From: Acidobacteriota bacterium
GTDB taxonomy: Bacteria; Acidobacteriota; UBA6911; RPQK01; JBHHYX01
Direction: 5' to 3'
Assembly (NCBI GenBank): GCA_046757765.1
Contig: JBHHYX010000001.1
Span: 1 to 54,670 of the forward strand
Length of the DNA stretch: 54,670 bases
The translations under genes were made by a program, and so were the position numbers. Every line of letters begins with the position of its first letter. The first letter of the stretch is position 1. Under the pieces are notes generated by a model. It was not told where the DNA came from. It searched no databases and worked only from the letters and a program-made list of their open reading frames with translations. This document shows positions 2,736 to 36,143 of this stretch, piece by piece.

Positions 2736-5098
<2,363 letters not shown>

Positions 5099-6840: not shown

Positions 6841-6841
6841 G

Positions 6842-13142: not shown

Positions 13143-13218
13143 AAAGGCGGTTATGGCAGCCGAGTCATCACTTCAATGGTCGTTTGGAGGTATGAGGTTG
13201 CTGGCTACCTGCTTGTCG

Positions 13219-13347
13219 CCGAATTCTGAGAATTTCGCTCCCATGCGGCACTGCAAACTGAACCGAAGCGTCAGAGCCCGGCCCAATCCGGATGGCCACT
13301 CACTGACGTTCGTGGTGCAGTCACCGCGCCGGAATCGCTCAACCTGC
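13219..13347 (+). repeat. R1 structured repeat, copy A (internally deleted variant; mini-ORF stop lost)
   Basis: GAATTCTGAGAATTT...ATGCGGCACTGCAAACTGAACCGAAGCGTCAGAGCCCGGCCCAATCCGGATGGCCACTCACTGACGTTCGTGGTGCAGTCA...GGAATCGCTCAACCTG. Confidence 0.85.
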
Positions 13348-13469
13348 GGAACCCAATTTCAAATCTCTCTGGTTAGATTTGGCGCGCCCCGGGTGCTTTC
13401 ACTCCCTTGCTGCCCACACCCGAAAAACGATTGCGCGGTACCGGCGTGAAACCAGCTGGATGAACCGGA

Positions 13470-14180
13470 CTATCCTCCGGGGCGGGGCGTCTGGCACGAG
13501 TCCTCTCCTGGTAAGAAATTCCGAATCGACTCGGCTACTGTGCGTGTGACCTCATCGGCTGGCCGCGCAGCGTCCAGGATGAGAAAATTCGGGACGATTC
13601 TCTTCAGTCGCAGGTACTCTCTACGGCGCTTTTCCAGCAACTCGACGCTCCCTTCGCCCTTGCGAGCGAAGAGCACTTCAGCCGGGGCGTCAAGGCAGAT
13701 CACTAAATCAGGCCTGGGATAGAAGCGTTTGAGCACAAGGCCGTGGATTCGGCGGACGAGTCCTCGCCGGTCCTCACTCTGGACATCATGGGCGTAATAG
13801 TCGCAAAAAAAGTGCCGGTCAAGCAGGACGATGAAGCCACGGTATTGGCAATACCATGCGTAGACTTGCCGAAACCACTCTTCGGCCATGAGGTTGAGCA
13901 CCCACAATGTGGATTTGAGTTGCCTCAGGGCGCACGCGATCCCGTTCCCGGAACGTCTTCGGGCGACTGCCGCAGGAGGGGGGCCACCTTGACAAGTGGA
14001 CTTGCCCAGGCCGCGCTTCATGCTGTGCAGGAAACGCGTAGTGGGTAAGAGGAGATTGCAGGAGTCCAGGTTGACGCCCATGTAAAGGTACTTCAGGGGG
14101 AGCCGGAGTTCATGCGGAAGCCGCCGACCGACCGTGGACTTGCCCGCCCCGTCGGCTCCGACCAGCGCAACAGTTATCAT
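13470..14180 (-). CDS. Stand-alone P-loop NTPase / nucleotide-kinase-like protein (paralog of the C-terminal half of 29113..30501)
   Basis: Walker A ALVGADGAGKST. The segments FIVLLDRHFFCDYY and YPRPDLVICLDAPAEVLFARKGE align with RFVVFDRYVYDSW and FPRPDLVLLLDAPGQVLYRRKGE of the fused protein. Confidence 0.7.
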   Translation of the reverse strand: MITVALVGADGAGKSTVGRRLPHELRLPLKYLYMGVNLDSCNLLLPTTRFLHSMKRGLGKSTCQGGPPPAAVARRRSGNGIACALRQLKSTLWVLNLMAEEWFRQVYAWYCQYRGFIVLLDRHFFCDYYAHDVQSEDRRGLVRRIHGLVLKRFYPRPDLVICLDAPAEVLFARKGEGSVELLEKRRREYLRLKRIVPNFLILDAARPADEVTRTVAESIRNFLPGEDSCQTPRPGG

Positions 14181-15375
14181 GATCTATTCCCTCGTTGCGG
14201 CATCTCAACAGGGTCTCGATCACCTGATTGACCTTGTCGCCGCTCTGATTCCATGCAAAGTTTCTCTCCACGAAGCGACGGGCTCGGGCATCCGGCCGGG
14301 GGTCCCGGGAGAGTTCGATGATTCGGCCAGCGACCTCTTCGACCCAAGACCGCCATCCCCTCACCACCTGGATGGGGGCCGGTTGACCCCGCTCCGTTCG
14401 CAATCCCTCAGCCGCCAATGGAGAGGCGATGATCGGCACTTCCATGGCCATCGCTTCCAGCAGCTTGTTCTGCATACCGGCCGCAAAGCGCAAGGGGGCA
14501 ACAAACAGGGTGGCGGCGTTCAAGTAGGGGCGCACGTCATGAACAAACCCCGTCACGCTGACACCCGGCTGCCGGCCCAGTTCAACAAGCCGAGGAGTGG
14601 GATCACGGCCGACGACTATGACGCGAACATCTGGAAGCACGGTTCTCAAGGGGGGAAGAATCTTTCTGATCAGGCAAACCGCGGCATCCACGTTGGGCCG
14701 GTAATCCATGGCCCCGGTAAAGACGAGGGTACGATCACCCAGCCTTGCCGCCGACCGTTTCCAGAAATCAAGATCTACGCCGTTGTGCACGATCGTTGTG
14801 GGGTTTCTGTGGTTTCCCACAACTGCCTCCCGATCGCGGGCGGAAATAAAGAGGGAATGCTGGGCCCGCAACAGGAGACGTCGTTCCCTTTGACGGACGG
14901 AGAGGTACTCCAGGAGAAGCAGAATCAGCCGCGGCGGGCCCGCATACCGCATGCTCCGACGGATTCTCATGGAGGTCGCGTCGCAGAAGTCGGCAATCAG
15001 GGGCAACTCAGCGACGGGTTGGACGGCCGGGAAGGTGTATTTACCACAAAAAACCAGGTCGAAGCGCTCCCTTGAAGCCAACTCCTCGACCGCTTGCCGC
15101 ATTTGGCCCACCGACTTGTCGACCCCCATCAGGGACCGCATGCGTCTCAGGCACTTTTGAAGAGGCGCACGGCGCCTGGCGGGAACGCGAAAGACCTGAA
15201 CGCTCCGGGTAAACGGGCGCAGTGCCGCCAGGTGCTCTCGCCTGAAGGTTGGAGTGGCCAGAGAGAGGAGAGTAATAGTGTGGCGGCGAGCCAGTTCCTT
15301 GATCAGGAAATAGTGCCGCAAGTACCCGCTTGTCAGTGGATAAGGGAAACCATTGCTCAGATACAGAATATGCAT
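14110..15375 (-). CDS. GT4-family (GT-B fold) glycosyltransferase
   Basis: 421 aa. MHILYLSNGFPYPLTSGYLRH... is typical of a GT4 N-terminus. The C-terminal domain has the E-x7-E-like region (NKLLEAMAMEVPIIAS). The 3' end overlaps the next gene by 71 nt. Confidence 0.8.
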   Translation of the reverse strand: MHILYLSNGFPYPLTSGYLRHYFLIKELARRHTITLLSLATPTFRREHLAALRPFTRSVQVFRVPARRRAPLQKCLRRMRSLMGVDKSVGQMRQAVEELASRERFDLVFCGKYTFPAVQPVAELPLIADFCDATSMRIRRSMRYAGPPRLILLLLEYLSVRQRERRLLLRAQHSLFISARDREAVVGNHRNPTTIVHNGVDLDFWKRSAARLGDRTLVFTGAMDYRPNVDAAVCLIRKILPPLRTVLPDVRVIVVGRDPTPRLVELGRQPGVSVTGFVHDVRPYLNAATLFVAPLRFAAGMQNKLLEAMAMEVPIIASPLAAEGLRTERGQPAPIQVVRGWRSWVEEVAGRIIELSRDPRPDARARRFVERNFAWNQSGDKVNQVIETLLRCRNEGIDHDNCCAGRSRRGGQVHGRSAASA

Positions 15376-15521
15376 CCTTCACTCTCCAGTCGTGGATTTC
15401 CCACACCCGCCGACTGCGGTCCCCAACCTCGGTCTGGTGGCGGGAGCGACACCGCCACTCGCGAGCCTCAGTTTTCCACAAGACGAGTGGCTGCTCCGGC
15501 CGGGCCTGGCTCTGCCGGCGG

Positions 15522-16556
15522 TCACCACTCCAACTCGGCATGGTGTTCGATGGAATAGCGCCATAATGCGTAGTATCGGTTTTGTCGCAGCCAACTGGCC
15601 GAGTGACCTTCAAGCGGCCCCCCCCGCTCGTTGCGAAAGCTAATGCGACACACCAGATTGGCCAGATAGCGGACCCAGACTGCCACGAACAAGGCTTTGA
15701 GGATCTCGGTTGTTAATTTCAGCCGAACCGCATACGCCTCGGCATAGACCCCGGCCCAGGCGGCCGGATTGAAGAACGCCGCCTGAAACGCCTTCAAACA
15801 GGCCTCGGTCGAACGGGCCTTGTGGCGAGCAAAGGCCGCATAGGTCAGAAAGAGGAAGAGGTCACAGGCCGGTAGCCCTATCGGATCGGCCAACTCCCAG
15901 TCGACAACGCCGACCCTCCCGTTTCCGAGAGAGATCAGGTTGGGGTGGCTCAAATCCCCGTGCTCAAACACCAAGGGAAGGTCTACGCGGCGCAAAGCTG
16001 CCACGATTTCCCCTGTCCGCTCCAACAGGAGCTTCTCTTCGCCGCAAGGGGAAAGTCCCTCTTCCAAACGCCGCAGGGGCTTTTCGACGAGTCTTTCATA
16101 CCAGGCGGAGTCAACTGCCGACGAAGTGTGCGCCGGCAACTGCAGTGCGAACAGCCAGCTGAGGATGGACTGACACCACTGATCGGGGTCTGCCCTCAGC
16201 GCCGCGGGATTCAATGGGAGCCCGACAAGGGCGGTTTCGACCAGGATGGATCGCCCTCGATACATTTCAAATGCCAGCACTCGTGGTGTCGAATCGAAAC
16301 CGTTCGGCCGACGTGCCTGGATCGCCCGCAGATTGGCCGCCTCCCGCCACAGGTTTCTGGCGGGGCCACTCAGGCGGGGCACTTTAGCCACCAGCACCGG
16401 ATCGGGCAGCCCTTCCGGCAGAGCGATGAACAGAACATGGGTCGATGTTCGAAAGCGGGGAGTCAGAATGACGCAGGTCAATTGTTCGGGAGCCCCAAAT
16501 TGCTGAAGTCCACAGCGTTCCCAGTTCTCTCGGAGAAAAGAAGAGAAAGTATTCAT
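15522..16556 (-). CDS. Aminoglycoside-phosphotransferase (APH)/choline-kinase-like protein kinase-fold enzyme
   Basis: Catalytic-loop motif FEHGDLSHPNLI followed by VVDWE. Paralogous to the C-terminal half of 25512..27293. Confidence 0.65.
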   Translation of the reverse strand: MNTFSSFLRENWERCGLQQFGAPEQLTCVILTPRFRTSTHVLFIALPEGLPDPVLVAKVPRLSGPARNLWREAANLRAIQARRPNGFDSTPRVLAFEMYRGRSILVETALVGLPLNPAALRADPDQWCQSILSWLFALQLPAHTSSAVDSAWYERLVEKPLRRLEEGLSPCGEEKLLLERTGEIVAALRRVDLPLVFEHGDLSHPNLISLGNGRVGVVDWELADPIGLPACDLFLFLTYAAFARHKARSTEACLKAFQAAFFNPAAWAGVYAEAYAVRLKLTTEILKALFVAVWVRYLANLVCRISFRNERGGPLEGHSASWLRQNRYYALWRYSIEHHAELEW

Positions 16557-16644
16557 GACTCGCTCTGCCTACATCCCTCTGGTCGGACCTGCGAGGGCGA
16601 CATCGCCATGTCGGAGATGCAGGTCGTCCGTCGGCTCGATTTCA

Positions 16645-17718
16645 TCAGCGCGCGGAGTTGCCTCCGGGGACCGAATGTGTCCAGTCAGTCCAACCCATGT
16701 TCTTGCCGCAGGCTGTAGGCGAATGGTTCCAGAAGCTGGTTCCATAGAAGTAATCCACCAGCGGCAGTTGCCAGGCGTCGTCCCCCTGGACGGGAAACCC
16801 TGCCTCACGATAGAGCCACTTATAGGCCCGCAGCAAAGCTCGATCCCCCCACTCAAAACTGTCGAAACCCGCACGGTGCAAAATCACTGCTTGGACAATG
16901 GCCCCTTGCAAGGCCTCATAGACGTAGTTTTCATGGGGTGGAGGCCATCTGAACTCGCCGCCCCGACGCTGGTCATCGGGCAAGACACCGTCAATCAAAT
17001 GAGCGCCTTTCCAGCAACCTCTTGGGTTGATTCCGACGGGGTTGTTGGGATCACACTGCCAGGAAAGATCGTTTCCGAACTGGAAACCGTTGTAGGCCTT
17101 TGTCTCACCCAGCCATCCCCTGAAGACCCGGGCAGTGCGCTCCAGTTCTTCCTGATCTCTCAGGTAGGCGGCGACCGCCGCCCGGCTGGCACCCGCATGA
17201 GTACCCCAGTTGTTGGGCCTTTTTTCGTGGGTCGATCGTAGCGTTCTGTCCCGCAGAGGCTCGTCCAGCGTTTCCCCTAACCAGGATCGAAAAGGGCGGT
17301 CTCCAGCTTCTGGAAGGTGGACGAGGTCGGCGGCGATAACGTAGGCGGCCAACTTTCGCCCCAGCGCCAGCGTGCGCCCCCCCCGCTCGCTGCCGATCGC
17401 ATCGAGACAGTGTTGGATCACTTCGAGACGGTATTTCTCTTCTCCGGTGCGGGCATACACGAGAGCCTTGGCCAGAACGCTGACATTGTTGTACTGATCC
17501 TGGTCGCTCAAGTCAGGGGGCCCGGCAGGCCGGTCGGCTCCCTTTTTCAAGCGCGCCCAGGCCCGGCCCCAGGTCGGCAGTTCGGCCAACTCATCCGGGC
17601 TGATCCAGATTCCCTGCTGGTTCTGTCGACCGGGAGGGGCGGCGGCAAGAAGGCTCGCCAGCAAGACCAGGGTGGTGACACTAACGCTAACCAAAAATAT
17701 TTGAAATTTTGATTGCAT
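16645..17718 (-). CDS. Secreted alginate-lyase/heparinase-like (alpha/alpha-toroid) polysaccharide lyase candidate
   Basis: Signal/anchor MQSKFQIFLVSVSVTTLVLLASLLAAA. The internal KRPNNWGTHAG resembles the NNHSYW-type motif of alginate-lyase-domain proteins. Assignment is from memory. Confidence 0.5.
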   Translation of the reverse strand: MQSKFQIFLVSVSVTTLVLLASLLAAAPPGRQNQQGIWISPDELAELPTWGRAWARLKKGADRPAGPPDLSDQDQYNNVSVLAKALVYARTGEEKYRLEVIQHCLDAIGSERGGRTLALGRKLAAYVIAADLVHLPEAGDRPFRSWLGETLDEPLRDRTLRSTHEKRPNNWGTHAGASRAAVAAYLRDQEELERTARVFRGWLGETKAYNGFQFGNDLSWQCDPNNPVGINPRGCWKGAHLIDGVLPDDQRRGGEFRWPPPHENYVYEALQGAIVQAVILHRAGFDSFEWGDRALLRAYKWLYREAGFPVQGDDAWQLPLVDYFYGTSFWNHSPTACGKNMGWTDWTHSVPGGNSAR

Positions 17719-17838
17719 CGGTTGGGCGATTCTGGCGGCAAGTCACTGAACCACGAACGTGAGCGAGTGGCCATCCGGATTGGGCCGGGCGCTGACGCTT
17801 CGGTTCAGTTGACACGGCATGGGCAAGGACCCTCCGCA
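17719..17838 (-). repeat. R1 structured repeat, copy B (mini-ORF 17743..17820, minus strand)
   Basis: The reverse complement reads GGAGGGTCCTTGCCCATGCCGTGTCAACTGAACCGAAGCGTCAGCGCCCGGCCCAATCCGGATGGCCACTCGCTCACGTTCGTGGTTCAGTGACTTGCCGCCAGAATCGCCCAACC. Confidence 0.85.
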
Positions 17839-17978
17839 TACGTCACCGTATTTATGAACCGTAGTCCAAGGCGGTGACGGACGCGCTTCAATTGGCGGAC
17901 TGCTTCCTGCTCGATCATTCCCGGTGTTTCCCCCTGATTGTCCCCACCCGACCCCGCCGGCGAGAGCATCCATTGTGA

Positions 17979-19496
17979 TCACGATCCGGCTCCACCAGTC
18001 CATGCCATCGGCTCCAAGGCGGCATCGACTGGAGCTTTCTCCCGGGCCTGAAAAATACGTAACGCGGCTCCGGCCAGGCCCAGCAAAAGCCAGTAATAGC
18101 GCTGGTAGGACATGTGAAGAAACAGGGCGGTCCCCAGGTAGCACACAATCCCAAAAAAGAAGGCGGTGGCCAGACCCGCCAGGTCGGGATGCGCCTCCCG
18201 CATCCGGGAACGGGCCACCCACAGCCGCCGCAGCATGGAGCCGACGATCGCCATGAACAGACAAAGCCCGATCAACCCGGTCTCAGCCGCCAGCTCAAAA
18301 TAGAGTGTGTGAGCTCTTCTGGGCTTGGGGAGGTCGCGAAAGGCAACAGCGGGATTCAACTGGTACTCCATCGAGTAAAAAGGCGTGTAATTTCCGGGTC
18401 CGACACCCAGAAGAGGATGGTCGAGGAAAACCATCAGAGCTGCCAGCATCTCGGTGGTCCGCCCCCTGATGACTGCTTCCGGCTCGATCTCGGCCTGGCG
18501 CGAAAACAATCCTTCAACACCCCAAAGAGTTTCCAGCCTTGTCAGATAGCCCGGGGCTGCGAACAGCGCCATTATGACGAGACCGCCAACAGCGGCCAAC
18601 CCCCGGGAAGGCCGGATCATCCGCAGCAGGGGAGCCAGGAGGATAACGACGACAATTGTGACGAACGCCCCGCGGGAATAGGAGAGCAAAATTCCCGAAA
18701 GAATGAGCAATCCAATGGCGGCGGCCACAATTCTCTTCCACCGGTGACGGGCCACCCAGTACTGAAAAAACGCCAGGGGCAAGATCATCAGGAGGATTTG
18801 CGCGTAGCGATTGGGGTCGCCCAGCGGGCCCTGGGCCCGGTCGCCCGTGCGGACCCTTTCATCCGGTGCGGTCTCCTTCGTCACGAACAGACGATTTCTC
18901 TGCGCCAGCCCCCCAAACTGATTCTCGTAGGAATGGGTCACCTCCTGGAACAGGCTGAGTGCGCCAAGCAACGCGCCCGTGAGCAGCAGCACCCAGATGA
19001 TGCGCCTCAGGGTGGAGGGCCGGCGCACCACGTTGACAACAAGCCAGTAGAGCACCAGCCCTTCAACGACGAAGTTGGCCGTCCAGCCGACCGCAACCTT
19101 CAGATCTTTCGCGAAAACGCTGGAAATCAGGAGAGCGAACAGGAACATGAACATCCAGATAAAAGTTCGATCGGCGACCAGGTTCTCCTGGCGCAGGAAC
19201 AGCTGATCGGTCAACGGAATGAGGAGCAGCAATGAAGCTGAGCCGGCCACTAAGGAAGGGACTCCGTAAAGCTGGGTGGCAATCCCACCGACATTGCTGT
19301 AGAGAAAACAGACGACGGCCAAAGTCGCCAGCTCCGGCCAGCGGGAAGCGATACCCACACCGACCCCCAGCGCCAGGGCCGCCGCCAGCAGGAAGGGGTT
19401 GTGTGCCAACATCAAGAGCACCAGAGCACCGCAACCAAGAAACAGTGCCGCCGGTCGGAGCCTTCTCTCCAATGAGACGAAGTCAGGATTGAGCAT
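17979..19496 (-). CDS. O-antigen ligase/Wzy-like polymerase family membrane protein
   Basis: 505 aa, polytopic. The central Wzy_C-like block is LLILSGILLSYSRGAFVTIVVVILLAPL. Confidence 0.75.
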   Translation of the reverse strand: MLNPDFVSLERRLRPAALFLGCGALVLLMLAHNPFLLAAALALGVGVGIASRWPELATLAVVCFLYSNVGGIATQLYGVPSLVAGSASLLLLIPLTDQLFLRQENLVADRTFIWMFMFLFALLISSVFAKDLKVAVGWTANFVVEGLVLYWLVVNVVRRPSTLRRIIWVLLLTGALLGALSLFQEVTHSYENQFGGLAQRNRLFVTKETAPDERVRTGDRAQGPLGDPNRYAQILLMILPLAFFQYWVARHRWKRIVAAAIGLLILSGILLSYSRGAFVTIVVVILLAPLLRMIRPSRGLAAVGGLVIMALFAAPGYLTRLETLWGVEGLFSRQAEIEPEAVIRGRTTEMLAALMVFLDHPLLGVGPGNYTPFYSMEYQLNPAVAFRDLPKPRRAHTLYFELAAETGLIGLCLFMAIVGSMLRRLWVARSRMREAHPDLAGLATAFFFGIVCYLGTALFLHMSYQRYYWLLLGLAGAALRIFQAREKAPVDAALEPMAWTGGAGS

Positions 19497-19532
19497 GAGC
19501 TATTCGCCCGGGAGGTTTTAACCTTGGCAGCT

Positions 19533-19748
19533 AGGTTGAGCGATTCCGCCGCCAGGTCACTGAACCACGAACGTTAGTGAGTGGACCATCCGGATTTTGG
19601 CGGGGCGCTGACGCTTCGGTTCAGTTTACAGTGTTCCAGAGTGTTGCATGAAATTTTGTCCCTCGGCTGCTGCCAGTTGCCAGCTCTGAGAAAGGGGCGC
19701 ACGTCGTCAAGACAACGCATCTGAGAGTAAAATTCTCAGAATTCCGCG
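19533..19748 (-). repeat. R1 structured repeat, copy C (longest copy; mini-ORF disrupted by a 10-nt duplication and a frameshift)
   Basis: The reverse complement reads GCGGAATTCTGAGAATTTTACTCTCAGATGCG...CAGAGCTGGCAACTGGCAGCAGCCGAGGGACAAAATTTCATGCAACACTCTGGAACACTGTAAACTGAACCGAAGCGTCAGCGCCCCGCC...CGTTCGTGGTTCAGTGACCTGGCGGCGGAATCGCTCAACCT. Confidence 0.85.
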
Positions 19749-19756
19749 GCAAGCAG

Positions 19757-20395
19757 CTAACAGCCGGAGCGTTGGGCCACCACGCTGAAGCGCCGCAACG
19801 TGCGCATGAGTATGCCGCTCTGGACCGCCAGACGAACAAGCAGCCGCAGGCAGCGCCCCGCAGACTTGCCGCGGACGGAGTGGGTACCGTAAAGCAGGGC
19901 CGCCGGGTCTTGGAGCGGAATGATCCTGGTGCAGGCGGCAAAATCCCTGCAGTGCCAGTAAGCCTCCACTTCCCGAAATCCAAGTTGCTCGAAGGTAGAG
20001 ATGTAGTGGTGAGGATAACAAGGCCGCGCTCCATCTTTTCTCGTCCTGCGGAGCGAGGCCCAAGAGAATGGAGAAGAGCCCTTCCAGTGATGGGACTCGA
20101 CGTAGAGAAAACCTCCAGGCCGGAGCAGGTCAGCCGCGCTCCGCAGTGTCCTGTAGGAGGGTCTGCTGGCGACGGCAACGTCGAAGTGTCCACTGACGGG
20201 GGCGTCGCCCGCCCCCGTCTCGAAAACAGTCAGATCGAAGCTGAACAAGCGCAACGACTCTACCAGTGGCCCGTCGACAACGCCCAGATAGGCCACGCGC
20301 CCTAGATTCGGGTCCGGCAGCAGGAAGCGCCAGTCCACTCGCCGCGAGGCCTCAAGTACGGCGTCGGAACGAGTCAGTGTCTGTTTGGTGATCAA
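19757..20395 (-). CDS. Class-I-methyltransferase-like fold protein (paralog of the N-terminal domain of 25512..27293)
   Basis: 212 aa with a TTG start. It shares DWRFL(L/M)P, an LLRPGGFLYVE-type block and an (E/Q)(A/S)YW block with the N-terminus of the 593-aa protein. I could not identify a clear SAM-binding GxGxG motif. Confidence 0.5.
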   Translation of the reverse strand: MITKQTLTRSDAVLEASRRVDWRFLLPDPNLGRVAYLGVVDGPLVESLRLFSFDLTVFETGAGDAPVSGHFDVAVASRPSYRTLRSAADLLRPGGFLYVESHHWKGSSPFSWASLRRTRKDGARPCYPHHYISTFEQLGFREVEAYWHCRDFAACTRIIPLQDPAALLYGTHSVRGKSAGRCLRLLVRLAVQSGILMRTLRRFSVVAQRSGC

Positions 20396-20586
20396 TGCGT
20401 TCTCCCTGCAAGTTCACCAACTGTCTACTGCAGCGGCGAAATCATCCGGGCTTAGGAGCCCTTTTCTCCGAGGGATTGTAGCGAGGCGCCGGAAAGCCTG
20501 TTCTGGTCGAAGATCCCGTTGTCCCCGCTGCGGGAGCCTGCTCCCTACCGACAGCTATACCCCCTTGCCCAACCTTTGCCCCGTTT

Positions 20587-20736
20587 TCAGAATCTGGCAA
20601 CTGGCTGCAGCCGAGGGACAAGATTTGATGGAACACTGCAAACTGAACCGAAGCGTCAGCGCCCGGCCAGGTCCGGATGGCCACTCACCCACGTTCGTGG
20701 TTCAGTGACTTGGCAGCCGAATTGCTCAACCTGGCT
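20587..20736 (+). repeat. R1 structured repeat, copy D (intact mini-ORF 20628..20708, plus strand)
   Basis: TCAGAATCTGGCAACTGGCTGCAGCCGAGGGACAAGATTTGATGGAACACTGCAAACTGAACCGAAGCGTCAGCGCCCGGCCAGGTCCGGATGGCCACTCACCCACGTTCGTGGTTCAGTGACTTGGCAGCCGAATTGCTCAACCTGG. The stop codon of gene 20726..21991 lies inside the 3' flank of the repeat. Confidence 0.85.
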
Positions 20737-21991
20737 GCCCTGGAGCCTGACCCCACAAGGGGTGGAGAGCATGAAACAGGGCCTGCATGGGCACTGGGTA
20801 GGGGTGGTAGACCGAGTAGGTCTCTTTTCCCGTCAACAACCGGCGGAGGGCCGACCTCTCGAGCTCTTCCACCCCCTCAATGAATTCGTTGCTGGCCTCC
20901 GGGAAAGCGAAGCGAAACTTCCGATAGTAGGACATGAAGCGCATTCGCTCTTCCTGTAACGAAAAGACCATCCGCCTGGCCACCTTGCGCGGGTCGGCGG
21001 GCCGGACGGTGACCCTCGGTTCCCGGTGACTGGCGACAAAGAGAAGGCGCTCGAAAGTGGCCCCATCTTTCGAATTGGGACCGAAGAGATCTCGGGGAGC
21101 AATGTTGATCCACTGCTGATCCTTCAACAAGGCCCTCAGCCGTCGGGCCAGGCCGTGCCAGGCCCAAGAGCGCCCGCTGCTCTGTCGCAAAGCCCCCTCG
21201 ACCAGCCCGACCAGACGGCGCAGCGTCCAGAGCCGGACACGATCACGCCTCCCGATGCAGCTCCGGAACTGGGGCAGGTTCTGGAGGTGCCAGTCCCAGA
21301 TCCGGATAGGCTCGGGAATCCCGTACATGCGTCCCTCATCATTGATGTAGACCCACTCGTCACCCACATAGTTGGCTCCGTTGGCCGCAAACGCCAGCAG
21401 TGTCTCGGTCTTTCCGCCCTTTGCCCAACCGGTGGCCAGAACGCCAACTCCCTGGTAGTCAAAGGCAGAAGCGTGGAGGGGGAGCACGCCCTTGGCAAGG
21501 GCGGTCAGATTGAGAATGGGAACCAGTAGCGGAACAGCCGGCAGCCCCTTTTCACAATGGATATGGCAATGGCCGCCGATCTGGTCAAAAGGAATCCGCA
21601 CTCGGACGCGCGACTTCCCTTTGCCGCTCAAAACAAAAAAGCCGTCACGGCTGAATCCCGCGTCCTCCACGCCAAGATAGCGGAGGGGAGGGTCAGGGAG
21701 CTGGTCTGCAAAGTGAATGACGATCTCAGGCGGACGACCCAGGGGCCTTCGAATGGGCCCCAGTTGCCCGTCTACCGCGGCCACATCACCCGGAGAAGGG
21801 TTGAGCAGGCGCACGCCAACGATGCCGTGGAGATCGTAGTCGACCCGCGTCCGGGCGCGGTCGGCGGTCAGGTGGCGAACAGATCCCTTTCCGAGCAGGT
21901 TCTCTGAACCCGGCCGGTGCTGAGACTCAGAGCTCAGATCCGAAAATCCGGAGGAGCCGGTTTCATGAGCGGAAAGGCCTGTCGCTCCCAT
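20726..21991 (-). CDS. HPr-kinase-C-terminal-domain-like P-loop protein (HprK-related kinase candidate)
   Basis: ORF 20726..22120 trimmed to the ATG at 21991, which overlaps the upstream gene by 29 nt. LHASAFDYQGVGVLATGWAKGGKTETLLAFAANGANYVGDEWVYI resembles the HprK catalytic-domain pattern (H.s.v...G.GvL..G.sG.GKS..al.l...G...v.DD). Confidence 0.5.
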   Translation of the reverse strand: MGATGLSAHETGSSGFSDLSSESQHRPGSENLLGKGSVRHLTADRARTRVDYDLHGIVGVRLLNPSPGDVAAVDGQLGPIRRPLGRPPEIVIHFADQLPDPPLRYLGVEDAGFSRDGFFVLSGKGKSRVRVRIPFDQIGGHCHIHCEKGLPAVPLLVPILNLTALAKGVLPLHASAFDYQGVGVLATGWAKGGKTETLLAFAANGANYVGDEWVYINDEGRMYGIPEPIRIWDWHLQNLPQFRSCIGRRDRVRLWTLRRLVGLVEGALRQSSGRSWAWHGLARRLRALLKDQQWINIAPRDLFGPNSKDGATFERLLFVASHREPRVTVRPADPRKVARRMVFSLQEERMRFMSYYRKFRFAFPEASNEFIEGVEELERSALRRLLTGKETYSVYHPYPVPMQALFHALHPLWGQAPGQPG

Positions 21992-24248: not shown

Positions 24249-24249
24249 G

Positions 24250-25512
24250 TTACTCCTCACTTGCCCCTGTCGCTCGGCACTGAGTACGAAAGAGCCGGGA
24301 GAGACGGGAGGCATTGATCTCGAGGTTAAAGTCCCGTATGACCGTCCTTCGGGACGACTGCCCAATCCGCCGGCGAAGTCCGGGATCCTGTTTCAGCCTT
24401 CGCAAAGCTCTGGCCAGCCCGCGCGAGTCTCGGGGGCGAACCAGAAACCCATTGCGGCCGGACTCAATCAACTCCGGAATCCCGGAGATGTTGCTGGCGA
24501 CAACTGGAAGAGAACAGGCCATGGCCTCCATCAGGGCCACGGGAATCCCCTCCCGTTTCCCCTCCCTCGTTGGGACGCTCGCCAGAACCACAACGTCGGC
24601 TTTCCCAAGCATGTTCAACACCTCCTGCCTGGACCTGGCCCCGAGCAGATGGACGCAGTCCCGCAATTCCCAGCGGACAATAAGCCTTTCAATTTTGGCG
24701 CGGAGCGGCCCTTCGCCCACTACATGGCATCGAAAATCGACACCTCCCCGTACCAGTTCGGAACAAGCTTCCAGCAAGTATCGATGCCCCTTAACTTCTT
24801 CCAGTGATCCGACACAGAGAACCTGGAGTGGAGCCTGGGCATCGCCACCGCCGTTGGTCAGGCGGGGATGGAACAGCTCGGTATCGACCCCACAATGAAT
24901 GACATGAATCTTCTGGCGGCTTTTCTCCCCGCATTCCCGAACCATGAGCTCCTTGTTGTAGCGTGAGACGGTAATGCCAAAGGCGGAGGCCTCGGTCTTC
25001 CGGGCCAGCATCCGCCTGTCAACATGCAGGTCCGAGCCGTGAGCCGTAAAGCTGTAGGGTATGCCGGTCAGTCGATGAATAATAAATGCAGCCATGGTGG
25101 GGTGGTTCACGAAGTGGCAATGGATGTGGTCGATCCCCTCTTCTTGCATGAGGTACGCAAAGCAGACAGACTTCGGCAGAATGGCGATGGCGCCACAGAA
25201 AAAATTGAGGCTGCCCCAAGTCTCCGACAACACCTCCATCCACAACCTGAAATAGCTTTTCCAGCTTCGGCGCATGAAGTAGAGGTTGGCCTTCAGAATC
25301 GAAAGCGAGAAGAAATGAAGATAGTGGGCCCGTTGGACCAGCCGTTGAGCTTCAGGGTGATTGACCGGCCGGCGCTCTCGCAGCAAAGGGTAGACCTCTA
25401 TTGAAAACCCTTCTTGCTCCATTCGAATCATTTCGTAGAGAACAAAGGTCTCCGTCAACTTGGGAAAACGAGACATGATATAGGCAATTTTCGGCCCGGC
25501 CGAGTCCGTCAT
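24250..25512 (-). CDS. GT4-family glycosyltransferase (WcaL-like)
   Basis: The ORF runs to 25548. It is trimmed to the ATG at 25512, which overlaps the upstream stop as TGATG. KIAYIMSRFPKLTETFVLYEM..., HCHFVNHPT and FTAHGSDL are typical of this GT4 subgroup. The EX7E region is EGIPVALMEAMACSLPVVAS. Confidence 0.8.
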   Translation of the reverse strand: MTDSAGPKIAYIMSRFPKLTETFVLYEMIRMEQEGFSIEVYPLLRERRPVNHPEAQRLVQRAHYLHFFSLSILKANLYFMRRSWKSYFRLWMEVLSETWGSLNFFCGAIAILPKSVCFAYLMQEEGIDHIHCHFVNHPTMAAFIIHRLTGIPYSFTAHGSDLHVDRRMLARKTEASAFGITVSRYNKELMVRECGEKSRQKIHVIHCGVDTELFHPRLTNGGGDAQAPLQVLCVGSLEEVKGHRYLLEACSELVRGGVDFRCHVVGEGPLRAKIERLIVRWELRDCVHLLGARSRQEVLNMLGKADVVVLASVPTREGKREGIPVALMEAMACSLPVVASNISGIPELIESGRNGFLVRPRDSRGLARALRRLKQDPGLRRRIGQSSRRTVIRDFNLEINASRLSRLFRTQCRATGASEE

Positions 25513-27293
25513 CACGCTCCAGCGACCGAATCGTCCGCGGGCTGCCATGGCGACGCTTCACACCAAACGGCGGCTCTGGACGGGTGGGGAAAAACAAGAG
25601 CAGCCAGGCGTGCTCTGTTGCGCGGTTCCAAGATCAGACGAAGCAGGCTGACGTAACGCCCGTCTTGCACGGAAGAGGGGGCGAGCATCGCGACTTCCTT
25701 CAGAGCCCGATGCATCCAGCAACTATAAAAGAGCGGCTCTACCAGACTCTGCCTCACTCCTATTCTCTGGCAGTAGTCTCGAATCGCCTCGGAGAAGAGG
25801 AGCGTCAAAGGTGAACCGAGCAAAAAATGTCGGACAAAGTTATCCAGGGCATCGCCATGGCCCTTGATTCGACGAGCCCAGGACCCGTAAGCCCTCAGAA
25901 AATAGAAAAGATCCCAAAGCGGCATGCCTTTGAGCTCACTGGACTCCCAGTCGAGGAAAATGACGTCGCCGGAGGGGGAAACCAGGATGTTGTGAGTGCC
26001 CGGGTCTCCATGCTGGACGACCGTCGGAAGTCTCACTTCGCGACGAGTCAGTCGTTCCAGTTGGCCCTCCAGGAAAGCTCTTTGGCGCATGTCGAGCCGA
26101 TAGATTCCATTAAAACCATGGTACAGTCGTTGCAGGGCAGTGCCCATTGCTTCACGTTGGCTCTCCCGGGCGGAAGAGGCTCCGAGTTGAGTGATCCAGG
26201 AAATGCCGGCCCGGGCTATTGGACAGGAGGACGTCGCCCGGGTTCGGGCTCGAAACGGGTCTCCCTCGATGGCCTTTTGCACCGCGATCGCCCTCCCGGC
26301 GTGATACCCGAGGAAGAGTGGTGTCGGCAGCGTCCCCTCCTTGACAAACCCTTTGTGAACCAATAATGAGAGAACTCGATGCTCATGTTCCAGCCGGTAG
26401 TTGAAGCAGGGCGACCGCGTCACCTTCGCCACCACATCGGCGCAACCCCTCCTGGTGAAGAAGAAAAAGATGATTTTGTTGGAGTTGCACTTGCCCCGAG
26501 CCGAGACTCCAAACCGATGGTCCTCGAGATCGATCCCGTGATCGGCCGCCAAAGTGACCAAGTACTCAGGCGGGCGCTTCCGTTCATCCGGCATGAGCGA
26601 TCGCCGGATGAGACCGGCCCTGCGGGGGAGGATGTGCTGAAGCACACCCATCCGGCTCAAACATCTTCCGATTCGGCTCAGCACCCGGTTCAGCAGCGAT
26701 CGCCCCGTCAAGACCTTGCTGAAAAAAAAGTGGCCGATGCGTTCATCTCCGACAGGCCCAGCCGTACGCATGGGGCCATGAAAGGGAGTCAGCCAGTAGC
26801 TTTGCACCGCGCCCAGACCCTCTTGCCTCAGATGCCTGAGGAGGCTCCGCTTGAGTCGGTGGCCGGCGAGGCGAGAGTGCTCGAAGTAGATCACTCCATT
26901 CGAGTTCAAAACCCGATTCAGGTCGGCGATCAGAAAATCGTCCCGGGCCAGTCCCTCAATGGATTCCAGTCTTTCGATGAAAACAAGGTCTATCGTCCGC
27001 GCCTGGAAAGGCAAGCTCTGGTTCTCGCTTCTCCCAATGACGGTCAGGTTCCATTCGGGAAAGCTCTTGCTGAGGAATTGGGCTCTTTCCAGTTCGGATC
27101 CATCCCTGACCACGACCGACAAGTCCGTCGACCCTTTTGACAAGACTGTCAGCGTCGATGGCGAGGGCATGCCCAGCGAGACAATGCGCCTCATCTCAAG
27201 GCTCGGCATCAGGAATCGCCAGTCGGCGCCAGCCAGATCGTTTTCAAGGTTGGTGCCTGGAGAGAAATCGCTTTCTAAGCAAGTTTCGAGCAT
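25512..27293 (-). CDS. Fusion protein: N-terminal methyltransferase-like fold + C-terminal APH/kinase-fold domain
   Basis: 593 aa. The N-terminal ~180 aa are paralogous to 19757..20395 (DWRFLMP...). The C-terminal part carries VVQHGDPGTHNIL and FLDWE, and is paralogous to 15522..16556. Confidence 0.65.
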   Translation of the reverse strand: MLETCLESDFSPGTNLENDLAGADWRFLMPSLEMRRIVSLGMPSPSTLTVLSKGSTDLSVVVRDGSELERAQFLSKSFPEWNLTVIGRSENQSLPFQARTIDLVFIERLESIEGLARDDFLIADLNRVLNSNGVIYFEHSRLAGHRLKRSLLRHLRQEGLGAVQSYWLTPFHGPMRTAGPVGDERIGHFFFSKVLTGRSLLNRVLSRIGRCLSRMGVLQHILPRRAGLIRRSLMPDERKRPPEYLVTLAADHGIDLEDHRFGVSARGKCNSNKIIFFFFTRRGCADVVAKVTRSPCFNYRLEHEHRVLSLLVHKGFVKEGTLPTPLFLGYHAGRAIAVQKAIEGDPFRARTRATSSCPIARAGISWITQLGASSARESQREAMGTALQRLYHGFNGIYRLDMRQRAFLEGQLERLTRREVRLPTVVQHGDPGTHNILVSPSGDVIFLDWESSELKGMPLWDLFYFLRAYGSWARRIKGHGDALDNFVRHFLLGSPLTLLFSEAIRDYCQRIGVRQSLVEPLFYSCWMHRALKEVAMLAPSSVQDGRYVSLLRLILEPRNRARLAALVFPHPSRAAVWCEASPWQPADDSVAGA

Positions 27294-27583: not shown

Positions 27584-29165
27584 GGAAGAAACGGAGAACA
27601 GGTATCCGCAACAGGGCTGGAAAAGTCTGGCCGATATCCAGTTTTTTCCTGCCCGCGGCCAGCACGAATAGAGCCGTCAAAAGCACAAAAGTCGCCCCCA
27701 GGTAGACGTTGCGGGGAGCGAAAAACTGTACTGCCACCAGGGCAAGCACTCCACCGCCGATGGTCAGGTAGAAGGAGACATATTTCCAGTCCAGCACGTG
27801 CAGCCCCGAAACGAGTCCCAGCCCGGCCTGTTTGAGGATGTTATGGAAAACCATTGTTCCCGCGGTCCCCAAGGCGGCGCCCAGTGCTCCGTAACGGTAA
27901 ATCAGAATCATGTTCGCGGCCGCGTTGGTGGCCAATGTCAGCAGGTCAATGGCCACTGTGTAGCGCACTTTGCCCAGGACCTTGAGGGTGACACCGTTAA
28001 ACCCGAGGGAGGCATTGAAGTAATAGCCCAATGCCAACAAGGCCAGTATCGTTGCCGACGACTCATAACGGGCCCCGTAGAGAAAAGTGGTCAAGGGAGA
28101 GGCCATACAGAAGGTCATGGCAAAGATTGGAAAAGAGAGAACGGCTGTCCAAGCCGCAGTGTTCCAGTAAAGGCTGTTGATGCCACGGGTATCCTTCCTG
28201 GCAAACAAACGGGCGGCCGCGGGAGTGTAGAGCATGCCCAGACTCGACATGACGAGAGTGTTGAAGCGGGCCGCCGGCAACACGACCCGAAAGCGAGCCA
28301 CTTCCGAGGCATCGTGAAAATACCCCAGCAGAAGGACACTCACCGGGTTCATCACCACAGTCAACAAGTCGGAAGTCAGCACGGGGAGAGTGAAGGAAAG
28401 AACTTCTCGCACCGGGATGCGGAGCGTCCGGAGGCGGCAAGACTGAAAAAGCCCTCGACGGCGAAAGATGCCCAACAACACCCAGAGGTAAAGAGTCAAC
28501 CCGGCGACACTGGCCAGTAGGTACCCCCAGGCCAGAAACTTGACGCTAGTCCCCAAGCTGATCAAGAGCAAAACCACCAGGAGTTTCAGACCCGGACCCA
28601 AAACATACTTGCGGAAGAAGATCGCCCGCGGCTCGCCGAAGGCAGCAAACAAGTGCACAAGAAGCAAGTCAAGTCCTTCCACGGGAACCAGAAAGACCAG
28701 AATGGAAAGCAAAACTACAGCCCGGTCTCCCTGAATCAGAAAATGAGAGAAAAGCCCCGGGGCAAGGTAGAAAGTGCCGATGATTGTCAAACCGGTTGCG
28801 ATGACGACACCGCCTGACAGGAGAATCGTTCCGAACAATTTTTCGATCTCACCCTTCTCGTCGTAGATGGGCACAAAGCGACTGATCGCGCGCTTGAACC
28901 CCAAGGTGGCAAACGCCTGCCAGAATGCGACGAACGAGAGTGCATAGAAAAACAGGCCGTAATCGTCCGTGCCAAGGTAGCGGGCAAGTGACACCTGGGC
29001 CGCAAAGTTGAGCCCTACGGCGATCAGCCTGCCTGTCACCAGAAGGGTCGAACCTCGGATCTGCGGAGCTGCCGTTCCGCCGCCCGACTGGGAAGAAACC
29101 TTCTCCAACCCCTCAACTGTCACAGCTGGGCCTCTGACGACTTTCCTGACGGTTTCCGTAGACAT
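27576..29165 (-). CDS. Wzx-type polysaccharide flippase (MOP superfamily)
   Basis: 529 aa with about 12-14 predicted TM helices. The N-terminal block LLVTGRLIAVGLNFAAQVSLARYLG is typical of polysaccharide biosynthesis (Wzx/RfbX) proteins. Confidence 0.75.
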   Translation of the reverse strand: MSTETVRKVVRGPAVTVEGLEKVSSQSGGGTAAPQIRGSTLLVTGRLIAVGLNFAAQVSLARYLGTDDYGLFFYALSFVAFWQAFATLGFKRAISRFVPIYDEKGEIEKLFGTILLSGGVVIATGLTIIGTFYLAPGLFSHFLIQGDRAVVLLSILVFLVPVEGLDLLLVHLFAAFGEPRAIFFRKYVLGPGLKLLVVLLLISLGTSVKFLAWGYLLASVAGLTLYLWVLLGIFRRRGLFQSCRLRTLRIPVREVLSFTLPVLTSDLLTVVMNPVSVLLLGYFHDASEVARFRVVLPAARFNTLVMSSLGMLYTPAAARLFARKDTRGINSLYWNTAAWTAVLSFPIFAMTFCMASPLTTFLYGARYESSATILALLALGYYFNASLGFNGVTLKVLGKVRYTVAIDLLTLATNAAANMILIYRYGALGAALGTAGTMVFHNILKQAGLGLVSGLHVLDWKYVSFYLTIGGGVLALVAVQFFAPRNVYLGATFVLLTALFVLAAGRKKLDIGQTFPALLRIPVLRFFLA

Positions 29166-30501
29166 TCCAAATCAGAGAAATGGCCTGGCGGCGCACCGCG
29201 TCGGCTCCAACAGTGGAGTCCACGACCGCCATCCGGGTAATTCTGTCCTTCAGACCCAGGTAGGCTTGTCGTTGAGCCTCCAGCCACCCCGGCGTGTGCT
29301 CGCCTTTTCTCCGGTAGAGAACCTGCCCCGGGGCATCCAGCAGGAGAACCAGATCGGGGCGGGGAAACCCGAATCCGAGCAGCCGCCGCTTCAATCTTTT
29401 CAGGCCTGAGGGTTTCTCCCTGGCCACCCAGGAGTCGTAAACGTAGCGATCGAAGACGACGAACCGTCCCCGCAACCGTTGGTACACCGCTACAGTCAAT
29501 CTGTACTGCTGATCGAGCCATCGATGGATGGCTCGGATGACCTTCAAGAACGCCCTCTTGAGACTGTAAGAACCTGCCCGGGAGGAGGACCCTGGGAAAT
29601 CCTCGATCCATCCGGGAGAAGGCAAACCGACCGTTCGGGAACGGGGATTACCGCCCATGTAAATCGGAATCCCACGAATGAAGGCATCCTTCGAGAGGTG
29701 GCGTGCCAGCGTACTCTTGCCTCCCCCGTCGGGGGCCAGCAGGACCACCCATACGCCCTGCCGAAAGAGAGCAAAGAGAAGACGTCGGCCTTTTCTCAGG
29801 GTCAGACCCCGGAGGAGACGCCACAGGGTGGCGAGGGGTTCGCACCAGAACATCCTCCGGATCAGAGCCGCGCGCCGCGCCATGAGCGACTGCCAATTCC
29901 GCCGCTCCACACTCTTAAAAATAAGAGAGGCCGAAAGGGCCGGGGCCAGCATCCCGTTGACGGCCCTTTCCAGCCTCCGCTCACCACCCGGCTCGTCCAG
30001 GACCCTACGATACAATGCGACCAACTCCCGGCCCCGCAGGAGGAAACTGTGAAAACCCGTATTGTGGATCAGACACTTGGTCAGCAGCACGATAAAGCCA
30101 TCTTCGGGAGCGAGGAGATAGGTTTCACCAAAGCGCCGACGCCTCTCCAGACAGGCGCCGGCAAAGCCCAGACGAAGGGCTCGGATCGGCTTGCCAAAGC
30201 AAAGATCCGTCACCACATCGAGCTTGATCCAGAGATCTTCTTCTCGGGCATAGGACACGAAGAAGTGATGGGGGGCGTGTCCCCAGGAGGGAACAGGGAT
30301 GAAACCAAGCCGGCAAAGGACCTCACATAAGCGACTCAAATGAGCGGCCCTTGCCAGAAGATCGATTTCCCGGACCGGTTTTTCCGCACGCAATTGTCTG
30401 TAGGGACCTATCAAGGCATAGCGAATGCACTTCTCTTCAAAGGCCGAGAAAACTGCGGCCAGGAGAGGGTGCAACTCGGGCTGGAACGTCTTGGTTGGCA
30501 T
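29113..30501 (-). CDS. Fusion protein: N-terminal uncharacterised nucleotidyltransferase-like domain (NTP_transf_5-like) + C-terminal P-loop kinase-like domain
   Basis: The ORF runs to 30570 and is trimmed to the ATG at 30501 (MPTKTFQPELHPLL...). The N-terminal part (CIRYALIGPY...EIDLLA...LGF) resembles the PF14907-type family from memory. The C-terminal part has Walker A LLAPDGGGKST and is paralogous to 13470..14180. Confidence 0.55.
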   Translation of the reverse strand: MPTKTFQPELHPLLAAVFSAFEEKCIRYALIGPYRQLRAEKPVREIDLLARAAHLSRLCEVLCRLGFIPVPSWGHAPHHFFVSYAREEDLWIKLDVVTDLCFGKPIRALRLGFAGACLERRRRFGETYLLAPEDGFIVLLTKCLIHNTGFHSFLLRGRELVALYRRVLDEPGGERRLERAVNGMLAPALSASLIFKSVERRNWQSLMARRAALIRRMFWCEPLATLWRLLRGLTLRKGRRLLFALFRQGVWVVLLAPDGGGKSTLARHLSKDAFIRGIPIYMGGNPRSRTVGLPSPGWIEDFPGSSSRAGSYSLKRAFLKVIRAIHRWLDQQYRLTVAVYQRLRGRFVVFDRYVYDSWVAREKPSGLKRLKRRLLGFGFPRPDLVLLLDAPGQVLYRRKGEHTPGWLEAQRQAYLGLKDRITRMAVVDSTVGADAVRRQAISLIWNVYGNRQESRQRPSCDS

Positions 30502-31288
30502 TAATATCTGGCTTCGCCGCCGAGTGCGAGCCAAGGTGTGGCCCCGGCTCGCCCCCGGAATCGTGGTCACAGCGCCGTGACAACGGCGGTGTGCCTCTGA
30601 AGCACCTCAGATTGAAAACGAAGAAAAGCACAACTCCCAGGTAAAGGATCGACTCCATCACTTCGTTGTACTCGGATATAGCAAAGGAATAGCTCTTGGG
30701 TCTCGGAAACGAGATGCGGTAGAGCCGCCACACAAATATGGGAAAAAAATAGGGGATGAGGCTGAAGTGCGGCACTACAAGCTTGAAGGTGTCGCTGTCA
30801 GGTCGAAGCCTGTTCCAGCCGATAAGCGCCAGCCCCGGCAAGAGGCTGCCCAAAGCTCCGGCAATCAACTGCAGCCCTCTGAAAGCGGACTCGACGCCAT
30901 GGACATTGTGGAGATTCGACTCCGCCTGCCGGTTCAGCGTATTGAGCCACTCCGGTGTCTCCCAGCCCAGCAGCCTCTGTCCCCAGCTCAGTTCCTCCCC
31001 CATCAGAAACAGGAACCCTCCAGCCAGAAAGAAATAGAGAGTGCGCATTCCTTTGCTCGAAAGGCGACGACCAATGAGAACAGTCAAGACCAGGCTGGTG
31101 GCACAACAGCCCACTTGCATATTCTCCAGAAAGCCGTCCTCGCCGGTCAGCCATTTGTAACCCTCCTTGCTGATGACTCCGACCGGCAGCGGGATCAGAG
31201 CCACGAGAAACGGCGTCACCAGAATGAGCATCGCCACCAGCACCGAAGTGTTCCAATCGTGAGTCGTCTTCCGCAACAGCCTTCGCAT
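30437..31288 (-). CDS. Polytopic membrane protein of unknown function (conserved-looking GEELSWGQR motif)
   Basis: 283 aa with at least 6 hydrophobic segments. The last ~45 aa are hydrophilic and overlap the next gene, so the true 3' end is uncertain. Confidence 0.5.
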   Translation of the reverse strand: MRRLLRKTTHDWNTSVLVAMLILVTPFLVALIPLPVGVISKEGYKWLTGEDGFLENMQVGCCATSLVLTVLIGRRLSSKGMRTLYFFLAGGFLFLMGEELSWGQRLLGWETPEWLNTLNRQAESNLHNVHGVESAFRGLQLIAGALGSLLPGLALIGWNRLRPDSDTFKLVVPHFSLIPYFFPIFVWRLYRISFPRPKSYSFAISEYNEVMESILYLGVVLFFVFNLRCFRGTPPLSRRCDHDSGGEPGPHLGSHSAAKPDINANQDVPARVAPSPGRSFLGL

Positions 31289-31299
31289 TTTTTCGGGAT

Positions 31300-31520
31300 T
31301 CTGGTTCTACGTCGCCTCAAGTCACTGAACCACGAACGTGAGTGAGTGGCCATCCGGATGGGGCCGGGCGCTGACGCTTCGGTTCAGTTTACAGTGCTGC
31401 ATGAAACTTTGTCCTTCGGCCCCTGCCAGTAACCAGGCTCTGACAACGAGGCGAAGGCAGGCCAACGGCAAGGGGACCCCGTCAAAACAACGCATCTGAG
31501 AGCAAAATTCCCAAAATACG
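31300..31520 (-). repeat. R1 structured repeat, copy E (intact mini-ORF 31322..31402, minus strand)
   Basis: The reverse complement reads ...GGGAATTTTGCTCTCAGATGCGTTGTTTTGACGG...CAGAGCCTGGTTACTGGCAGGGGCCGAAGGACAAAGTTTCATGCAGCACTGTAAACTGAACCGAAGCGTCAGCGCCCGGCCCCATCCGGATGGCCACTCACTCACGTTCGTGGTTCAGTGAC. Confidence 0.85.
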
Positions 31521-31524
31521 GCGG

Positions 31525-36100: not shown

Positions 36101-36143
36101 TAACCGACCGCTGGTCGGTCTGAGGCACCGCCTCGCTATGATC

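Follow-up and report, generated by a model that had tools for sequence, protein, structure and literature searches.

We analyzed a short repeat, termed R1, which is present in five copies on a complete 54,670-bp contig (hereafter, the window) of an NCBI metagenome-assembled genome labelled Acidobacteriota bacterium. Nearly all genes between ~10.6 and 38.5 kb of this contig are on the minus strand, and they jointly form a Wzx/Wzy-type exopolysaccharide locus, in which the five copies are found. We propose that R1 is a lineage-specific, noncoding, mosaic palindromic repeat of the kind represented by miniature inverted-repeat transposable elements (MITEs) and bacterial interspersed mosaic elements (BIMEs), a reading to which we give an even chance. 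An earlier reading made from the letters alone (the sequence-only reading) had left two options, either a repeat resembling MITEs and repetitive extragenic palindromes (REPs) or a locus-specific module. The first option is the better supported, given the mosaic and truncated copies, their two orientations, their overlap with the ends of coding sequences, the lack of compensatory changes, and a second repeat family on the same contig.

The five copies were recovered at the places given by the sequence-only reading by counting an exact word, by alignment, and by nhmmer. The 17-mer CTGAACCGAAGCGTCAG is found five times, at 13258(+), 17792(-), 19608(-), 20643(+), and 31371(-), where chance would give 0.20 matches; none of 100 shuffled sequences contained it five times. 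Alignment of the five copies revealed a core of ~80 nt with 66 invariant columns and pairwise identities of 85 to 94%. Neither an nhmmer profile nor a covariance model built from the five cores and searched with filters off found a sixth copy in the window. Both methods agreed with the earlier statement that the housekeeping flanks hold no full copy; the one fragment seen there covers 2692-2721. Each R1 copy is assembled from a different subset of modules, namely M1, M2, core, M3, and tail, named in the orientation reading CTGAACCG..., and its limits were drawn from nhmmer, BLAST, and inspection by eye, as follows.

Copy A, 13201-13377, plus strand, antisense to the genes: M1 (~13206-13243), core hairpin (13257-13322), M3 (to ~13346), and tail1 (to 13377).
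Copy B, 17687-17843, minus strand, gene-sense: core (17741-17809), M3 (17720-17740), and tail1 (17687-17719), without M1 and M2.
Copy C, 19503-19759, minus strand, gene-sense, the fullest copy: M1 (~19722-19759), M2 (~19640-19698), a 10-nt insert, core (19555-19625), M3, and tail2.
Copy D, 20555-20745, plus strand, antisense: M2 (~20578-20637), core (20642-20707), M3, and tail2.
Copy E, 31295-31524, minus strand, gene-sense: M1, M2, core (31320-31388), and, past a 10-nt insertion, a degenerate M3 that the ATG at 31288 follows directly.
Solitary M1 fragment, 2692-2721, plus strand: CTGCTCAGCGCCGAATTCTGAGAGTTTTGC, 83% identical to M1 of copy A and directly 3' of ligA.

The constant unit of these copies, which are 157 to 257 nt long, is an imperfect palindrome of 66 to 71 nt. 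Its outer stem is a perfect 8 bp (ACTGAACC/GGTTCAGT). Further inward come a bulge, 3 to 5 bp, a second bulge, a stretch of up to 6 bp that is perfect in copy A alone, and a small GGCC...GGCC hairpin. The arms measure ~18 nt each, bulges included. The arms are indeed imperfect reverse complements, as had been described. The left arm is a 19-nt run that is invariant across the copies, and the bases beside the arms are also equal in all of them (CACTGYAA on one side and GACYTG on the other). No open reading frame (ORF) is common to the copies, and orientation 2 has stops in all three frames.

The other modules are distributed largely as first described. A module of ~60 nt (M2) is found in copies C, D, and E, and it is missing from copy A, which is thus an internal-deletion form, as had been described. 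Copy A has also diverged furthest of the five: its M3 has lost 2 nt, and its terminal stem carries a T>G change. M1 forms a second hairpin, common to copies C and E, which reads TCTGAGA-N7-TCTCAGA in copy C. In copy E, its left arm carries two changes (C>T and A>G), both of which can still form G.U pairs on the gene-sense strand, such that pairing is kept. The solitary fragment near ligA, which is outside the polysaccharide locus, corresponds to the left arm of this hairpin only. M3 is common to copies A to D (GGAATCGCTCAACC), where copy D reads TGGCAGCCGAATTGCT; its supposed absence from copy E did not hold, since a degenerate version, CAGAATCCCGAAAA, is kept there after the 10-nt insertion.

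We then looked into the positions of the copies relative to the genes. Along the all-minus-strand cluster, R1 runs + - - + -, with copies B, C, and E in sense and copies A and D in antisense orientation. The successive spacings are ~4.4-4.5, 1.8, 1.0, and 10.7 kb, and they bracket 4, 1, 1, and 7 genes, respectively. Copy C fills 254 of the 260 nt between the stop codon at 19757 and the Wzy-like start at 19496, and copy E fills 230 of the 236 nt between the stop at 31525 and the ATG at 31288. Because these full copies span the distance from stop codon to start codon, R1 creates the gaps that hold it.

At other borders, the repeat extends into genes. Tail1 of copy B contains the ATG at 17718, and the homology between copies A and B passes this codon by ~30 nt, into the first ~10 codons (signal-peptide codons) of a lyase-like gene (16645-17718). 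The upstream 421-aa gene takes its final 6 codons and its TGA stop (20726-20728) from the 3' end of copy D. Strict confinement to intergenic gaps, as first claimed, does not hold, due to the A/B homology and copy D. Likewise, a position just 5' of a start codon was found for copies B, C, and E (0 to 7 nt) and not for the other two: copy D abuts a stop codon and is 160 to 190 nt from the start at 20395, and copy A is 59 nt from the GTG at 13142 or ~150 nt from a better-looking ATG at 13049. In any case, any gap in a same-strand cluster precedes a start codon.

The history of R1 can be compared with that of the genes around it. Paralogous genes of the locus are 27 to 38% identical in protein and have no similarity in DNA, and the similarity between R1 copies ends at the gene borders. 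Since the R1 copies are 85 to 94% identical, R1 was spread or homogenized long after these genes diverged. For the same reason, we rejected the idea that R1 is a remnant of the duplication behind the kinase-like and APH paralogues. Copies A and B have ~30 nt of flank in common (coding in copy B), and copies C and D have a different common tail, tail2. These common flanks and tails suggest that at least some copies arose via recombination or segmental duplication, including inversion, and not by clean transposition.

We infer the following for the mode of spread and for any effect on RNA. R1 would have spread within the locus partly by recombination or segmental duplication and partly, perhaps, through a trans-acting transposase that recognizes the hairpin or its arms. 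The insertions would have opened gaps of 230 to 330 nt in an otherwise tightly packed same-strand operon, and two of them would now supply a gene's start codon or stop codon. Transcripts of the operon would contain the core as a stem-loop, whichever way it is oriented. The likeliest effect, if any, would be the generic one of REPs and MITEs, namely, to act as a barrier or cleavage site and so determine how stable the upstream mRNA is relative to the downstream mRNA. Inverted and direct R1 copies could also provide homology for rearranging blocks of polysaccharide genes.

If this reading is right, R1 is a small-repeat family new to an Acidobacteriota lineage of which few genomes are available, and it accounts for the unusually wide gaps of a compact operon. 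R1 also fragments short-read assemblies of this organism: in the Logan assembly of the same sample (SRR29324609), the 5,980-bp contig SRR29324609_198677 ends in the core of copy D, at ~20659 of the window. A break there is expected for a repeat longer than the k-mer of the assembler. Should R1 prove restricted to polysaccharide loci genome-wide, it would offer exopolysaccharide synthesis a new and tractable candidate signal for intercistronic control or for recombination.

We searched for relatives of R1 in several collections. Exact-pattern scans, which require exact matches and which diverged relatives would escape, gave one chance match with an unrelated loop among the GTDB representative genomes (Mesorhizobium), none in the JGI metagenomes with two different patterns, and two chance matches only in IMG/VR. 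The covariance model yielded nothing above noise in ~40 kb surrounding the ligA genes of the two closest relatives or in ~50 kb of the loci with the nearest GumC homologues, two of which are the same locus from two samples. The latter loci are compact operons without comparable repeats. Six-frame translations of R1 had no match among 5.8 billion proteins, and an ORF spanning copy D, when searched exhaustively against 1.84 billion representatives, matched a WD40-repeat protein and a repetitive ORF, each by coincidence. The lineage appears thinly sampled and its nearest relatives distant, as judged from protein comparison, in which the closest LigA is 69% identical and the closest GumC homologue is 37% identical.

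Evaluation of the folding potential of R1 gave different pictures for the whole copies and for the core. On the orientation-1 strand, copy B was the only whole copy to fold better than dinucleotide shuffles (z = -2.2); on the opposite strand, the z values of the whole copies were -0.2 to -1.3. The core alone (66 to 71 nt) reached -19.5 to -32.5 kcal/mol, with z values of -1.1 to -3.4 versus mononucleotide shuffles on both strands, and the strand reading CACTGAACCACG... was always the more stable of the two. According to RNAalifold and a direct count of pairs, 18 of the 21 core pairs never vary, and the 3 varying ones are all broken (A.G, A.C, and C.C). The sequence-only reading had proposed to look for compensatory changes in the arms. 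None were found among the 21 core pairs in the five copies of this contig, and the covariation score is zero, a comparison of near-identical copies that has little power; the 37 pairs predicted with M2 added (copies C, D, and E) likewise show no compensatory change. The covariation test thus gives no positive support for a selected structure. The earlier argument that mixed orientation speaks against a strand-specific riboswitch was sound, and Rfam 15 likewise offers no family: it has 0 matches in the window at the gathering score, and R1 has none even at an E value of ≤10. A tRNA-derived element was considered and rejected, as ARAGORN finds no tRNA, and scans for sigma-70 promoters and intrinsic terminators revealed nothing specific to R1.

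Several observations weigh against a repeat of the MITE/BIME kind. No copy-specific direct repeat (target-site duplication) was found at the outer borders of R1, and no transposase or recombinase gene among the ORFs scanned in the 54.7 kb. M2 and M3 are conserved beyond the inverted arms, which makes the arms internal to the unit and not terminal. Paired columns of the core vary less than unpaired ones (3/42 versus 8/25; Fisher P = 0.014), a difference that is consistent with selection on the hairpin and with conserved inverted arms alike. The spacing from M3 to the start codon is equal in copies B and E. Last, all five copies are within 18 kb of the polysaccharide locus, with none in the ~6 kb of noncoding DNA elsewhere on the contig, which includes gaps of 1,985, 911, 734, 684, and 564 nt. 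When five elements are distributed randomly over the 37 gene boundaries or over the contig, a span this tight arises with a P of ~0.04. We regard this clustering as suggestive but weak and post hoc, drawn from five copies in one 54.7-kb contig.

R1 is not the only short repeat of the window. A second, unrelated family with the motif CTAGCCCGCATTTCTCACAC is found at ~5.2, 5.7, 6.8, 10.6, 20.5, and 36.1 kb, and its presence indicates that short intergenic repeats are a general property of this genome. Its members are the following.

5233-5262, plus strand.
5723-5752, plus strand.
6810-6839, minus strand.
36146-36168, minus strand.
6733-6779 and 10576-10622, inverted pair.
5818-5842 and 20470-20494, inverted pair.

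The 47-nt inverted pair of this family (91%) brackets a 1208-aa Flg_new_2 gene, and one piece shares a gap with R1 copy D. The region 4857-6841 consists of ~2 kb without a Pfam-recognizable gene and holds paralogous small coiled-coil ORFs, at 5425-5625(-) and 5864-6112(-), which are interleaved with the second family.

Further repeats of the window belong to neither family. At its start (1-55), the contig repeats the heptamer CTGCCTA 7.9 times in perfect tandem, and long intergenic heptamer arrays are also found in a distantly related polysaccharide locus of another metagenome (L008, 5429-5638 and 7477-7589). A 70-nt direct repeat (81% identity; 36045-36114 and 52412-52481) encodes on the plus strand an acidic motif, AIDGDSDGEPDWDTDEDAA, that is common to the unannotated ORFs 36018-36704 and 52325-52642. 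Real small genes may be present there in place of the minus-strand ORFs that were assumed. A 37-nt repeat (86% identity; 35009-35045 and 36867-36903, with an inverted match at 36799-36832) contains the palindrome TTGCGCAA; it flanks the region of the glycosylphosphotransferase gene and could be a candidate operator-type site. A near-perfect 36-nt palindrome (94% self-complementary) is found at 42628-42663, inside or at the overlap of an endonuclease/exonuclease/phosphatase-family gene and a LiaF-like gene.

Among the alternatives, the one that survives best is that R1 is a selected, locus-specific, cis-acting hairpin module that divides the ~28-kb operon into expression units, either as a signal for RNA stability or processing in both orientations or as the putative binding site of a locus-specific protein. 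We consider this alternative possible but doubtful. The presence of every copy inside the locus (P of ~0.04), the stems being less variable than the loops (P = 0.014), and the equal M3-ATG spacing in copies B and E would all suit such a module, as would the invariant 19 nt of the left arm, the full copies that run exactly from stop codon to start codon, and the M1 hairpin of copy E, which is kept via two G.U pairs in gene sense. However, there are zero compensatory changes and all three changes in paired columns break pairs, four of the five whole copies fold no better than shuffles in orientation 1, and on the opposite strand none is clearly better. Modules are absent or degenerate in differing copies, two of the five copies are antisense, nothing alike is seen in distantly related polysaccharide loci, and no relative was found in the collections searched. 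By our estimate, an invariant run of 19 nt is not unusual at such divergence. We also rejected the missing Shine-Dalgarno sequence after the sense copies as a distinctive feature, since only 15 of the 33 genes of the window have one.

R1 could instead be a passive relic of duplications and inversions within the locus, kept similar by gene conversion and devoid of mobility or function. The ~30 nt that copies A and B have in common beyond the element, including the gene start, the tail2 of copies C and D, and the old paralogue pairs within the locus are all in line with such a history. Yet the similarity breaks off abruptly where the genes begin, with the paralogues only 27 to 38% identical, and conversion limited to ~80 to 250 nt of noncoding DNA, at five places and in both orientations, would be unusual without a driver, which makes this origin unlikely. 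We rate as equally improbable that R1 is a dedicated boundary module of the polysaccharide locus, in the form of a folded DNA or RNA site that works in either orientation. The site would serve a recombinase encoded elsewhere in inverting or exchanging blocks of polysaccharide genes, or else a factor for RNA binding or processing in controlling the stoichiometry of the operon products. If true, this would be a new way to vary or tune an Acidobacteriota surface polymer.

We also evaluated whether R1 might be a portable promoter-plus-leader cassette, with M3 as a sigma-54 -24/-12 element. The sense copies would then drive or tune the gene directly downstream (lyase-like, Wzy, and membrane protein) and the antisense copies would give antisense RNA. 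M3 reads TGGCAG-N5-TTGCT in copy D and TGGCGG-N5-TCGCT in copy C, with the correct GG-N10-GC spacing, a sigma-54 activator gene adjoins the locus, and copies B, C, and E end 0 to 7 nt from start codons. Nevertheless, we rejected a sigma-54 promoter in M3 as a chance-level match, for the window contains 14 sigma-54-like matches against 14.4 expected, the GG doublet is lost in copies A and B, an insertion breaks the element in copy E, and the best-matching copy, D, points antisense. A sigma-54 promoter in M2 (TGGCAA...GC) was rejected because of its wrong spacing, the sigma-70 scan was unconvincing in R1 (3 found versus 3.7 expected), and the best sigma-54 site of the window is elsewhere, at 38982-38997. 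Such a cassette is thus quite unlikely.

Last, R1 is very improbable as a folded recombination site resembling attC or the Vibrio cholerae repeats, at which a recombinase encoded elsewhere would shuffle or invert polysaccharide gene blocks: its 66- to 71-nt imperfect palindrome, with arms of ~7 + 4-5 + 6-7 nt, bulges, and an AAC...GTT outer stem (seen by eye and taken as a lead only), the high similarity of the copies to each other, as known from chromosomal integron arrays, and the single genes bracketed over 1 to 1.8 kb by copies B-C and C-D are set against the + - - + - order, which also encloses one block of ~4.4 kb with 4 genes and another of 10.7 kb with 7 genes, the lack of a tyrosine recombinase among the ORFs scanned, the core-pathway nature of the bracketed genes (Wzc, Wzx, Wzy, and glycosyltransferases), and conserved modules that reach well beyond the palindrome.

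The locus itself encodes a GumC/Wzc-type chain-length/tyrosine-kinase protein, a Wzx flippase, a Wzy-like polymerase, GT2 and GT4 glycosyltransferases, a polysaccharide deacetylase, a polyprenyl glycosylphosphotransferase, and a Wza-like exporter. Its housekeeping flanks contain ligA, radC, pfkB, atpB/atpF, and an RND efflux pump. The locus also holds two pairs of paralogues, namely, two P-loop kinase-like genes (13470-14180 and 29113-30570; 30% identical) and two APH-family genes (15522-16556 and 25512-27293; 27% identical). A DWRFL(L/M)P motif is common to the N-terminal domain of the 593-aa APH protein (25512-27293) and to a 212-aa protein (19757-20395) encoded between copies C and D. Phosphorylation steps may be part of how this polysaccharide is made. 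The top sigma-54 promoter-like site of the window, 38982-38997 (minus strand; TGGCACAGTTCTTGCC, 1 mismatch), is located in the 911-nt gap from the sigma-54 activator gene (39365-40945) to the Wza-like exporter gene (37470-38453), where it is a plausible candidate for the head promoter of the polysaccharide locus.

We then compared R1 with known systems. Sites of the attC type in one array are on the same strand, <4 kb apart, with cassettes of ~2 kb or less (PMC4889954), an arrangement that R1 does not have. R1 shares with attC sites (57 to 141 nt) and Vibrio cholerae repeats a bulged imperfect palindrome, the likeness of copies within a chromosome, and the separation of genes (PMC4889954). It differs from them in its mixed orientation, its multigene blocks of up to 10.7 kb, its conservation beyond the palindrome, and the lack of an integrase nearby. 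No integron integrase or tyrosine recombinase domain was found in the ORFs scanned over 54.7 kb, which carries little weight, as most clusters of attC sites lacking integron integrases (CALINs) are by the same token without one.

R1 also stands apart from curated cis-regulatory RNAs, having no Rfam family, a mixed orientation (3 sense and 2 antisense copies), and no covariation. JUMPstart/ops is a short conserved noncoding element of enterobacterial polysaccharide operons, present once per operon and in sense orientation. R1 is similarly short, conserved, noncoding, and linked to polysaccharide genes, but it is multicopy, is found in both orientations, and lacks the ops 8-mer GGCGGTAG; the two matches of this 8-mer in the window (42119 and 48008) are no more than chance predicts. 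The ORFs scanned included no NusG/RfaH-like gene. An identity with JUMPstart/ops was rejected, as the ops element is absent from R1.

The likeness is closer with mosaic repeats. BIMEs of E. coli, which are based on REPs, and the pneumococcal BOX elements (boxA-boxB-boxC) are mosaic elements. Like them, R1 combines subsets of modules around a palindromic unit, is intercistronic, and would form a hairpin in mRNA. The sequences are unrelated, and the palindrome of R1 is 66 to 71 nt long, against 20 to 40 nt in REPs. REPs are 20- to 40-bp palindromes that end on one side in an unpaired tag, GTAG or CGTC (PMC3733652), whereas in R1, CGTC occurs in the left arm but within the stem, and no unpaired tag of either sequence is found at an end of the palindrome. 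In Thauera sp. MZ1T, REP arrays flank clustered genes for exopolysaccharide synthesis and export, and the authors suggested a modulation of expression (PMC3733652). These arrays and R1 are both short palindromic repeats concentrated at exopolysaccharide genes, with the difference that the Thauera repeats are GTAG tagged and form a genome-wide family, while R1 is untagged and known from one contig.

MITEs are 70 to 300 bp long, are found beside genes, are cotranscribed with them, and fold (PMC3733652). Acidobacteria also possess tyrosine transposases with associated families of inverted repeats (PMC3733652). R1 departs from MITEs such as Correia/NEMIS of Neisseria, ERIC, and RUP in that no target-site duplication is seen, no parent insertion sequence is known, and five copies are known in one locus. 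Its arms are also internal: compared with the terminal repeats of 15 to 30 bp in MITEs, R1 has a perfect inverted repeat of 8 bp, or ~18 nt with bulges, with conserved sequence outside. It nonetheless shares with MITEs a size within their range (157 to 257 nt), a noncoding nature, with no ORF common to the copies and no protein family in translated searches, and hairpin-forming inverted arms. It further resembles them in its placement in either orientation between genes, its occasional overlap with gene ends, its internal-deletion variants, and its position within an operon, where it would be transcribed.

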